Origin: Patescibacteria group bacterium
GTDB lineage: Bacteria; Patescibacteriota; Patescibacteriia; Patescibacteriales; UBA12465
Length of the DNA stretch: 64,000 bases
Direction of reading: 5' to 3'
Assembly: GCA_041650715.1 (NCBI GenBank)
Contig: JBAZKQ010000002.1
Coordinates: 9,568-73,567, forward strand
The notes under the pieces are model-generated. The model searched no databases. It was not told the origin of the DNA and saw only the letters and a program-made list of their open reading frames with translations. Position 1 is the first letter of the stretch. Each line of letters opens with the position of its first letter. This document shows, one piece after another, positions 12,403 through 12,561 of the stretch. A program made the position numbers and the translations under genes.

Positions 12403-12561
12403 TGACAGGACTCGAATGCCGGAGGCGATGCGCACTTGTGCGCCGCCGAGGCCGGGTCGGGGCGCTTAGTGAGCGCAGACTCGCGTAGCGAGGCCAGCGA
12501 GACTTAGCGACCGTGACCGAGTCCTGATTTGTCAGGCGCCTGCGACGCGAAAGTCCTGTCA
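12403..12561. other. G+C-rich structured non-coding element A, tRNA-adjacent
   Basis: 159 nt, roughly two-thirds G+C by hand count, in A+T-rich flanks.
- Perfect 10-nt terminal inverted repeats: tgacaggact (12403-12412) and agtcctgtca (12552-12561).
- Internal hairpins: gcgca-cttg-tgcgc, gcgct-tagtg-agcgc and cctga-tttg-tcagg.
- 12404-12416 is the exact reverse complement of the tRNA-Val T-arm at 12327-12339.
- No credible ORF. Confidence 0.5.

Follow-up and report, generated by a model that had tools for sequence, protein, structure and literature searches.

Locus and sequence of the segment behind tRNA-Val

The DNA analyzed here (the window) is a 64-kb stretch of a metagenome-assembled contig from Candidatus Falkowbacteria (Patescibacteria/candidate phyla radiation (CPR)), with a mean G+C content of 0.40 and A+T-rich spacers. 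Within it, tRNA-Ile(UAU), tRNA-Val(GAC), a hairpin terminator, and a G+C-rich segment at 12403-12561, designated E1, come in this order after a DHH-family gene (10978-12120). A second segment, E2 (56712-56888), lies behind tRNA-Gly. The coordinates of all features are given in Table 1. An earlier note on this DNA had described E1 as a structured element carrying an inverted copy of the T-arm of tRNA-Val, and had offered a structured non-coding RNA (ncRNA), a small mobile element, or a recombination scar as explanations.

The statements of that note on the sequence of E1 were all confirmed on recheck. The G+C content, given as about two-thirds, was 0.67 over positions 12400-12549 with a peak of 0.74 (80-nt window), compared with 0.18-0.25 in the downstream flank. 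Perfect 10-nt inverted repeats are present at 12403-12412 (tgacaggact) and 12552-12561 (agtcctgtca). The left arm is the exact 13-nt reverse complement of the T-loop and 3' T-stem of tRNA-Val, and direct 9-nt copies of the T-arm follow at 12518-12526 and 12552-12560. Outside the tRNAs themselves, no matches to any tRNA in the window were longer than the inverted T-arm copies of E1 and E2. The terminator between tRNA-Val and E1 has a stem of 14 pairs on the plus strand and 12 pairs on the minus strand. The 159 nt of E1 folded better than shuffled sequences on both strands, with z = -2.9 (+) and z = -4.2 (-). The absence of a plausible open reading frame (ORF) also held, as a 57-aa ATG ORF at 12389-12562 (-) is Arg-rich and without a Pfam or PADLOC match. 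A protein-coding reading of the region was rejected, since neither this ORF nor the 136-aa ORF downstream of E1 (ORF136) has a family match.

Table 1. Features of the tRNA-Val and tRNA-Gly loci in the window (positions of the window; RT, reverse transcriptase; HTH, helix-turn-helix)
Feature	Positions	Strand	Basis or remark
tRNA-Ile(UAU)	12187-12261	+	tRNA search
tRNA-Val(GAC), host tRNA with copied T-arm	12273-12347	+	ARAGORN; Rfam tRNA 72.9 bits
tRNA-Val T-loop (T54-T60), 3' T-stem and one further base	12327-12339	+	source of the copies
Intrinsic terminator hairpin between tRNA-Val and E1	12354-12385	both	A-tract upstream, T-tract downstream
Left arm of E1, reverse complement of 12327-12339	12404-12416	+	12406-12414 is the 5' strand of closing helix P1
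Subtype-B structured core of E1	12414-12519	+	covariance model R1
Right arm of E1, direct copy of tRNA-Val C56-G64 (CGAGTCCTG)	12518-12526	+	3' strand of P1
Tail of E1	12527-12561	+	hairpin 12523-12536, 15-nt G+C-rich stretch, third partial T-arm copy
Rest of the insertion	12562-13255	+	promoter-like site 12621-12649, ORF136 12771-13181, terminator 13197-13220
E2 left-arm-like segment, reverse complement of tRNA-Gly G53-T66	56720-56733	+	
E2 body, purine-rich and G+C-rich	56734-56888	+	tRNA-proximal edge of a ~4.5-kb island
RT (334 aa, YVDD motif) and overlapping upstream HTH gene (109 aa)	58569-59889	-	

A family of tRNA-anchored units in metagenomes

Metagenome contigs were scanned with the pattern TTCGAGTCCTG-N45-75-CAGGACTCGAA, which is the T-arm core of tRNA-Val followed by its reverse complement. 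The layout of E1 was not unique, and at least 120 metagenome loci shared the arrangement. ARAGORN found exactly one real tRNA in 103 of the 121 listed matches and a convergent tRNA pair in one. The tRNAs among the listed matches were specific for Arg, Met, Val, Ala, Leu, Ile, Lys, Pro, Trp, Ser, and Asn, and the G+C content of the loci ranged from 0.31 to 0.61. A convergent tRNA pseudogene was ruled out as an explanation of the inverted arm by the single tRNA pair in the 121 listed matches, and by left arms that complement the 3' T-stem despite a 5' stem differing by G·U (L041, L046, L048, L060, L088).

The unit of the family consists of the tRNA, a trailer that often contains a terminator, a left arm, a core, and a right arm. 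The left arm is the reverse complement of the T-loop and 3' T-stem of the unit's own tRNA, the core is a G+C-rich, multi-helix segment of 70-160 nt, and the right arm usually goes on to repeat the tRNA directly, starting near C56 and reaching its 3' end. Pairing of the two arms gives the closing helix P1, whose sequence is that of the T-arm duplex of the tRNA gene. Between the repeats the unit is usually 150-250 nt long, with no gene remnants. A repeat of the 3' T-stem and acceptor strand (≤2 mismatches, ≤450 nt) was found in 57 of the 103 listed loci, compared with 1 of 88 upstream controls. Repeat lengths ranged from 7 to at least 40 nt, and the exact repeat ended ≤2 nt from the tRNA 3' end or ran past it in 39 of 56 listed loci. 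A target-site duplication set by a fixed ruler was ruled out, because the repeat ends follow the end of the tRNA.

Among 208 distinct tRNAs, a set enriched by the search design, for 116 an 11-mer from the tRNA's own 3' end was found inverted 15-130 nt downstream, compared with none in the upstream control. The earlier note had suggested testing whether each copy mirrors the T-arm of the tRNA that it abuts. This was the case for the 17 of the 116 positives that the search had not selected, which showed the arrangement with their own T-arms (three different His variants, Ser, Gly, Thr, Leu, Lys, and Pro). Most of these 17 have recognizable cores of type A or B (see below), with arms and repeat rewritten for each tRNA. 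Several contigs have more than one occupied tRNA, namely Arg and His in L040, His and two Arg in L104, Arg and two Gly in L111, and Trp and Thr in L069. Members of the family were seen in Patescibacteria and on metagenome contigs from the guts of termites and humans. The arm logic is common to at least five unrelated core types. The core families recur behind many tRNA species and in many genomes, and their arms change with the tRNA.

Scans of viral contigs yielded two loci, both of a tRNA-Glu variant. BLAST searches gave no match among plasmids, and among phages only unannotated gut "Bacteriophage sp." contigs that carry a Firmicutes-like variant. This variant (L035 470-1051, L036, L044, L048, and L075; viral and human-gut contigs) has tandem conserved cores of ~100 nt, each joined to an inverted copy of the complete tRNA 3' end that runs through CCA into the terminator. 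It is convergent with tRNA-Glu, tRNA-Val, or tRNA-Met, and its orientation is opposite to that of the CPR and termite-gut types. Compensatory changes between L035 and L036 were noted by eye.

Structure and strand of the cores

The covariation analysis suggested in the earlier note showed strongly covarying helices in subtypes A and B. In the subtype A alignment of 12 sequences, 27 of 47 predicted pairs had double changes, compared with 13.4 in shuffles; paired cells amounted to 95% versus 81% in shuffles, and slid controls gave ≤8 pairs with double changes. The subtype B alignment of 13 sequences, including E1, has 25 predicted pairs. Its covariation score was 0.445 compared with 0.158; none of 500 shuffles reached 0.445, and slid controls scored ≤0.09. 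G·U pairs outnumbered A·C pairs (14:5 and 25:11), which identifies the tRNA-sense strand as the one that folds, in the form of either RNA or single-stranded DNA. A G·U pair in the helix formed by GGGUCG and GUGACC was retained in 12 of the 13 subtype B sequences. Selection acts on the core structure in the tRNA-sense strand.

No Rfam 15 family was found for E1, for which the earlier note had allowed a known family. At gathering and at permissive thresholds, E1, E2, and 27 family loci gave no matches beyond tRNA and tmRNA, the only families to reach threshold, and the weak matches were hairpin artefacts.

Additional motifs were observed around some cores. Subtype A has two conserved hairpins with loops of the types CAGGAUG and CAUGGAUG (L040, L051, L104; alignment A2, columns 64-85 and 111-127); these may resemble the targets of CsrA/RsmA-type proteins, which bind hairpins with GGA in the loop. 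Directly 5' of the left arm, an additional hairpin whose loop is of the YUGGGAR type is seen in many units of subtypes B and C (L053, L057, L060, L070, L072, L073, L087, L090, L111). In L111, two different tRNA-Gly genes share a near-identical 82-nt trailer and the YUGGGAR hairpin and have different cores, which hints at modular exchange. As an anecdotal observation, the subtype C core of L073 is interrupted by an IS110-like transposase (351-aa ORF, assigned by eye from its N-terminal sequence) located about 145-1200 nt downstream of the left arm.

E1 as a member of subtype B

A covariance model, R1, was built from 11 subtype B cores. E1 was left out of the model, and so were the arms, because the common T-arm could otherwise inflate the score. 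R1 matched E1 with 34.1 bits and E~9e-6 (rough calibration), and its next-best match in the window reached only 11.6 bits. E1 aligned with subtype B, including the near-invariant GGGUCG and GUGACC, the conserved G·U pair, and the P2 helix. Over all loci R1 gave 23 matches including E1, and 22 of them sit 44-139 nt behind a tRNA on the same strand; E1 lies 66 nt behind tRNA-Val. In most matches the left flank is the reverse complement of the T-loop and 3' T-stem of the locus's own tRNA, and the right flank repeats the 3' end of that tRNA. No R1 match was found in the Falkowbacteria relatives. In this analysis subtype B was encountered on contigs of Patescibacteria/CPR. The subtype B host of L069 is a Paceibacterota/Parcubacteria-type organism by SecA, so subtype B spans CPR lineages. 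Taken with the alignment, the R1 match makes it very probable that E1 belongs to the tRNA-anchored family.

The comparison redefines the unit, which is not a 159-nt segment closed by 10-nt terminal repeats. The canonical element comprises positions 12404-12526, and the P1, P2, and P3 helices of the family were reproduced by its own minimum-free-energy fold. In E1 the P2 helix joins 12418-12420 with 12450-12452 around a hairpin at 12430-12443, and GGGUCG (12454-12459) pairs with GUGACC (12513-12518), enclosing a branched hairpin domain. The acceptor 3' strand was missing after the CGAGTCCTG right arm in a search to position 13400 with ≤6 errors. As the tRNA acceptor repeat is usual in the family, E1 was classified as a truncated copy. 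In the tail, a hairpin overlaps the right arm, and the third T-arm copy (AGTCCTGTC) lies at 12552-12560. Third copies with a core remnant in front occur likewise in L040, L104, L139, and L062; the tail would most simply be the remnant of an older, mostly deleted copy. The 10-nt terminal repeat of the earlier note is then read as a pairing between two copies, with its left half from the left arm of the newer one and its right half from the right arm of this remnant. No flanking duplication was found around E1, and no second copy of its core in the window. With its acceptor repeat lost, a strong terminator in front, and no recognizable promoter, E1 is probably an inactive, truncated relic followed by the debris of an earlier copy.

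Insertion at tRNA-Val

The locus was compared with 28 loci related via the DHH protein (50-79% identity). tRNA-Ile(UAU) is kept beside the DHH gene in all 28, and the order DHH, tRNA-Ile(UAU), tRNA-Val is kept in the 20 relatives in which tRNA-Val was detectable. In 19 of these 20 the terminator of tRNA-Val leads directly to the hsp20 promoter (cattTACATT...aaaaattggTAAATT) and the hsp20 gene. In the window the same promoter and gene start only at 13256, behind ~860 bp of extra DNA that holds E1, a promoter-like site, ORF136 (a membrane segment, by eye from the translation), and a terminator. Because 19 of the 20 relatives join tRNA-Val directly to hsp20, E1 came into this lineage within an inserted segment. 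E1 is not conserved at the tRNA-Val locus, and a conserved local ncRNA was ruled out by its absence from the loci of the relatives. Contigs from a second sample break in tRNA-Ile and at 12677, i.e. on either side of E1.

Arrays, remnants, and an orthologous locus

Tandem units and nested remnants were both found in the family. In L139 a pair of identical units is present, each comprising the segment from C56 to the tRNA 3' end, the trailer, the left arm, and the core; behind the pair come a further 3' end, which has another trailer, and then an older fragment. Similar arrays are present in L055, L062, L120, and L088, and third partial copies or nested remnants in the four loci named above for the tail of E1. 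The intact tRNA is always on the upstream side of the arrays. The trailers of the first and second copies were clearly related (z>3) in only 12 of 56 loci; seven of the 12 were inspected, and most of these were explained by tandem units.

Subtype A occupies an orthologous tRNA-Met locus across species, with only 47-68% identity in the flanking protein. The cores at this locus could be aligned, and the spacers could not be aligned by eye. The repeat tracks five different tRNA-Met acceptor variants, which indicates either recurrent insertion that copies the target or selection to match the tRNA.

E2 and the tRNA-Gly island

E2 had been proposed as a second element of the same kind. The 14-nt reverse complement of tRNA-Gly (56646-56659) in its left-arm-like segment was verified; the segment lies just past a bidirectional terminator (56666-56709) with perfect 20-bp arms. 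The inverted T-arm logic is thus common to E1 and E2, whereas the words that the earlier note found in both occur at chance level. Homology of the two segments gained no support from alignment, local-alignment statistics, R1, or blastn/nhmmer searches; the best local alignment had p~0.02 against shuffles, and the motif order differs. The fold of E2 was not significant against shuffles (z = -1.1 and 0.06), no right-arm repeat was found in it, and there were no relatives of E2 among the fetched loci. E2 shares its arm logic with E1, and a common family is unproven.

Relatives with a 92-95% identical SmpB are without E2. In L159, a homologue of the window ORF at 61267-61776 directly adjoins tRNA-Gly, from which it follows that the window carries an island of ~4.5 kb (about 56.7-61.2 kb). 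The site after smpB, tmRNA, tRNA-Leu, and tRNA-Gly is a variable integration hotspot in close relatives (L159, L161, L162, L163). A phage-type integrase lies directly after tRNA-Gly in L163 (5114-6289, -), and other relatives carry different genes there. The island of the window contains an NYN-domain gene (57726-58403) and a type-VI-retron-like pair of RT and HTH genes. The RT matched PADLOC RT_VI at 6.5e-19, with Pfam RVT_1 below threshold, and the HTH protein matched HTH_VI at 2.6e-12. A gene-free stretch of ~890 nt upstream of this pair (59890-60780) could hold a retron ncRNA. E2 was rejected as the msr-msd of this retron, as it is separated from the RT by 1.7 kb and two convergent genes, and the RT is encoded on the opposite strand. 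E1 was likewise rejected as an msr-msd, as no RT is near it.

Some further features of the window were recorded. A palindrome with 27-nt arms (96% complementary, 7-nt spacer) lies at 24547-24607, in the spacer between tRNA-His and a small ORF downstream. The octamer AAGAAATA is repeated four to five times in tandem at 20348-20401, at the end of the ORF 19031-20356 and just in front of a terminator. A yidC - yidD - rnpA - rpmH / dnaA - dnaN cluster is found at ~15.7-19.9 kb, which places E1 within a few kb of the likely replication origin.

Comparison with known systems

Islands, prophages, and their gene-less derivatives (cis-mobilizable elements, CIMEs), which integrate into the 3' part of tRNA genes by tyrosine integrases, share several traits with the family. 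They leave the tRNA intact, create a direct repeat of its 3' segment from the T-loop, pile up in successive insertions, and place strain-specific DNA next to the tRNA. In contrast, the family units of ~150-250 nt contain no integrase or other gene, and they have an additional inverted T-arm that pairs with the direct repeat, a covarying core, and arms rewritten for each tRNA. Direct repeats of the tRNA 3' segment, as expected of a CIME, were seen in the 57 listed loci given above; in E1 there are only 9-nt partial repeats, and in E2 none. No integrase gene or remnant was found between the repeats of the units.

A second likeness is to folded-hairpin sites, namely attC and the attP(+) hairpin of CTX-phi used by XerCD. 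In these, the stem of an imperfect hairpin reproduces a double-stranded target, structure is more conserved than sequence, one strand matters, and arrays form beside a fixed site. The R''/R' consensus (RYYYAAC/GTTRRRY) is, however, not matched by the ..TCGAAC/GTTCGA.. arms of the family. Its "cassette" would be the tRNA 3' end and trailer only, and its cores are long, branched, and conserved in sequence within subtypes. No IntI or Xer link was seen near the family, and none was searched for. An integron attC site was rejected for E1 by inspection, as the arm ends ..CTCGAA(N) / (G)TTCGAG.. miss the consensus and there are no cassette ORFs.

Guide-bearing elements (group II introns with exon- and intron-binding sites (EBS/IBS), the IS110 bridge RNA, and the IS608 guide) likewise have a retargetable segment complementary to their target. 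The family differs from them in its single contiguous complement of 11-15 nt, from T54 to ~66, which is accompanied by a sense copy. It has no ribozyme or recombinase gene and no Rfam intron match, and its insertion point, read from the genomic sequence, is tens of nucleotides away from the complementary site. Neither E1 nor E2 matched Intron_gpII or group-II-D1D4, even at E≤10, and a remnant of a terminator-targeting class C group II intron was rejected for lack of any intron domain match.

CRISPR (clustered regularly interspaced short palindromic repeats) arrays and casposons, both Cas1-based, also add new units beside a fixed leader (here the tRNA body) and duplicate a repeat. The family lacks a Cas1 or casposase context, its repeat length follows the tRNA end instead of a fixed ruler, and its inserts are homologous structured cores, not diverse spacers. 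Some casposons are reported to insert at the 3' end of a tRNA gene with a short duplication (PMC5137440).

Miniature inverted-repeat transposable elements (MITEs), repetitive extragenic palindromes (REPs), and bacterial interspersed mosaic elements (BIMEs) resemble the family as short, non-coding, intergenic sequences with inverted ends, often behind terminators and with G+C-rich hairpins in an A+T-rich genome. The ends of the family are instead site-specific, being copied from the neighboring tRNA, and its units are tied to tRNAs without a fixed target duplication.

A retron ncRNA, a group II intron remnant, a TnpB/Cas12-type guide on the minus strand, and the homing spacer of a CRISPR-associated transposon (CAST) were set aside, because there are no partner genes, the G·U bias is on the wrong strand, the guide is too short, and no model matched. 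Palindrome extension by template switching at the terminator was rejected because it leaves the conserved cores and direct repeats unexplained. The family fails the defining tests of tRNA-integrating elements, folded-hairpin sites, and guide-bearing elements. On the best reading of these comparisons, it would nonetheless work like one of them: like tRNA-integrating elements, which keep the tRNA whole and displace the old 3' end, like folded-hairpin sites, or like guide-bearing elements.

Interpretation and alternatives

Considering these results together, E1 is probably one copy from a family of insertion elements that are small, non-coding, and structured and are located directly behind tRNA genes. 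Of the explanations in the earlier note, a tRNA-linked structured family with matching arms was borne out, and the 159-nt unit and the kinship of E1 and E2 were not; E1 proved not to be conserved at its locus. The distribution of the units suggests that the family spreads as a mobile insertion element, which we consider the likelier behavior. In the proposed model, the elements would be non-autonomous and would spread by T-arm-directed insertion, with the enzyme supplied in trans. Each insertion would leave a complete tRNA upstream and displace the previous 3' end, along with any earlier copies, to the downstream side. Since the arm helix is a mimic of the target, it may be the site of recognition or recombination, in the form of a folded single strand or of an RNA guide. 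This targeting by the arm helix is a tentative part of the model and is held with less confidence than the mobility.

Several points weigh against this interpretation. No recombinase, transposase, or reverse transcriptase is consistently adjacent to the elements. No free or circular form and no empty/filled-site pair within a species was observed, so mobility is inferred from the distribution. The scan pattern requires the inverted arm, by which the loci are pre-selected and give no frequency among all tRNAs. Units that carry their own tRNA 3' end make a move to another tRNA species hard to explain. A repeat made from the target predicts similar trailers, and these were unrelated in most loci. 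The presence of subtype A at an orthologous tRNA-Met locus fits a retained functional RNA at least as well, and multi-helix cores with conserved loops are more reminiscent of functional RNAs than of recombination sites.

The alternative that these last points favor is a functional RNA linked to the tRNA and transcribed with or behind it on the same strand, with copies behind different tRNAs as old paralogues. The closing helix and 3' tail would imitate the T-arm and acceptor to pair with, mimic, or compete with the tRNA, and the RNA might provide an alternative 3' end in read-through transcripts, act as a decoy for enzymes or toxins that attack tRNA 3' ends, or serve as a protein sponge. Such an RNA would account for the strong covariation and sense-strand G·U bias, for the CAGGAUG-type hairpin loops of subtype A, and for subtype A units that have no terminator hairpin between tRNA and element (spacers judged by eye). 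It is also in line with the retention of alignable subtype A cores amid unalignable spacers at the orthologous tRNA-Met locus, where the repeat covaries with the acceptor variants. It does not account for subtype B units, including E1, that usually lie behind a strong terminator with no recognizable promoter, nor for tandem arrays, nested remnants, and truncated copies, nor for at least five unrelated core types with a common arm logic. E1 itself lacks the acceptor tail and is missing from 19 related loci. We regard this alternative as rather unlikely, and as partly compatible with mobile insertion in the form of a domesticated or RNA-dependent mobile element. A recombination scar, in which attL/attR-type debris of integrase-carrying islands or prophages would supply the repeats and attP-arm DNA the core, is improbable. 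An identity block from about C56 to the 3' end is typical of integrases that cross over in the T-loop, and the direct repeats of the family have this extent. E1 and E2 are both at the tRNA-proximal edge of lineage-specific insertions, and the relative L163 has an integrase gene directly after tRNA-Gly. Scars would not, however, keep compensatory base changes across phyla, the short units contain no gene remnants, and ordinary attP/attB products give direct repeats with no inverted arm, which is also not seen in the integrase-bearing L163.

An ordinary repeat class, either REP/BIME palindromes or a MITE moved by a conventional transposase, would make the T-arm likeness incidental or derive it from a tRNA-derived terminal repeat. 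The small size, terminal inverted repeats, post-terminator position, and presence of more than one copy per contig in metagenome loci agree with this. The arms are not a fixed terminal repeat and vary with the adjacent tRNA, the duplications have no fixed length and mostly end at the tRNA 3' end, 22 of the 23 R1 matches are tRNA-linked and not dispersed, and the E1 core has no second copy in the window; the explanation is accordingly very improbable. Chance, an assembly chimera, or randomly captured foreign DNA is effectively refuted. The metagenome assembly and the contig breaks of the second sample on both sides of the region would allow a chimera, but synteny is right on both sides of E1. 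Chance is contradicted by the independent R1 match at E~1e-5, by the 0 of 208 in the upstream control, and by the same architecture in more than 100 independent assemblies.

Implications

tRNA genes are classic landing sites for mobile DNA, and the elements known to use them are, to our knowledge, equipped with an integrase of their own. The tRNA-gene sites described here hold tiny, gene-less elements with a conserved fold and with arms rewritten for each tRNA. A full-text literature search found no description of such elements, an absence that is no proof of novelty; the family is apparently undescribed so far. It possibly constitutes a new class, consisting either of programmable, gene-free mobile elements of ~100-250 nt or of tRNA-mimicking regulatory or decoy RNAs that co-evolve with the tRNA, and we put this forward with reserve. 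In the programmable case, a structured RNA or folded single strand may carry both strands of the target, the tRNA T-arm, in its closing helix and so direct its insertion behind or into tRNA genes of many bacterial phyla, with the arms re-templated on each new tRNA.

For the window, both G+C-rich islands are explained as edges of lineage-specific insertions at tRNA genes. If the elements are mobile, their targeting mechanism via T-arm mimicry or pairing would be of interest for programmable insertion, and annotation would be affected, as the elements look like tRNA fragments, terminators, or small RNAs. If they are functional RNAs, they would represent several new and widespread RNA families that are physically and evolutionarily coupled to individual tRNAs.

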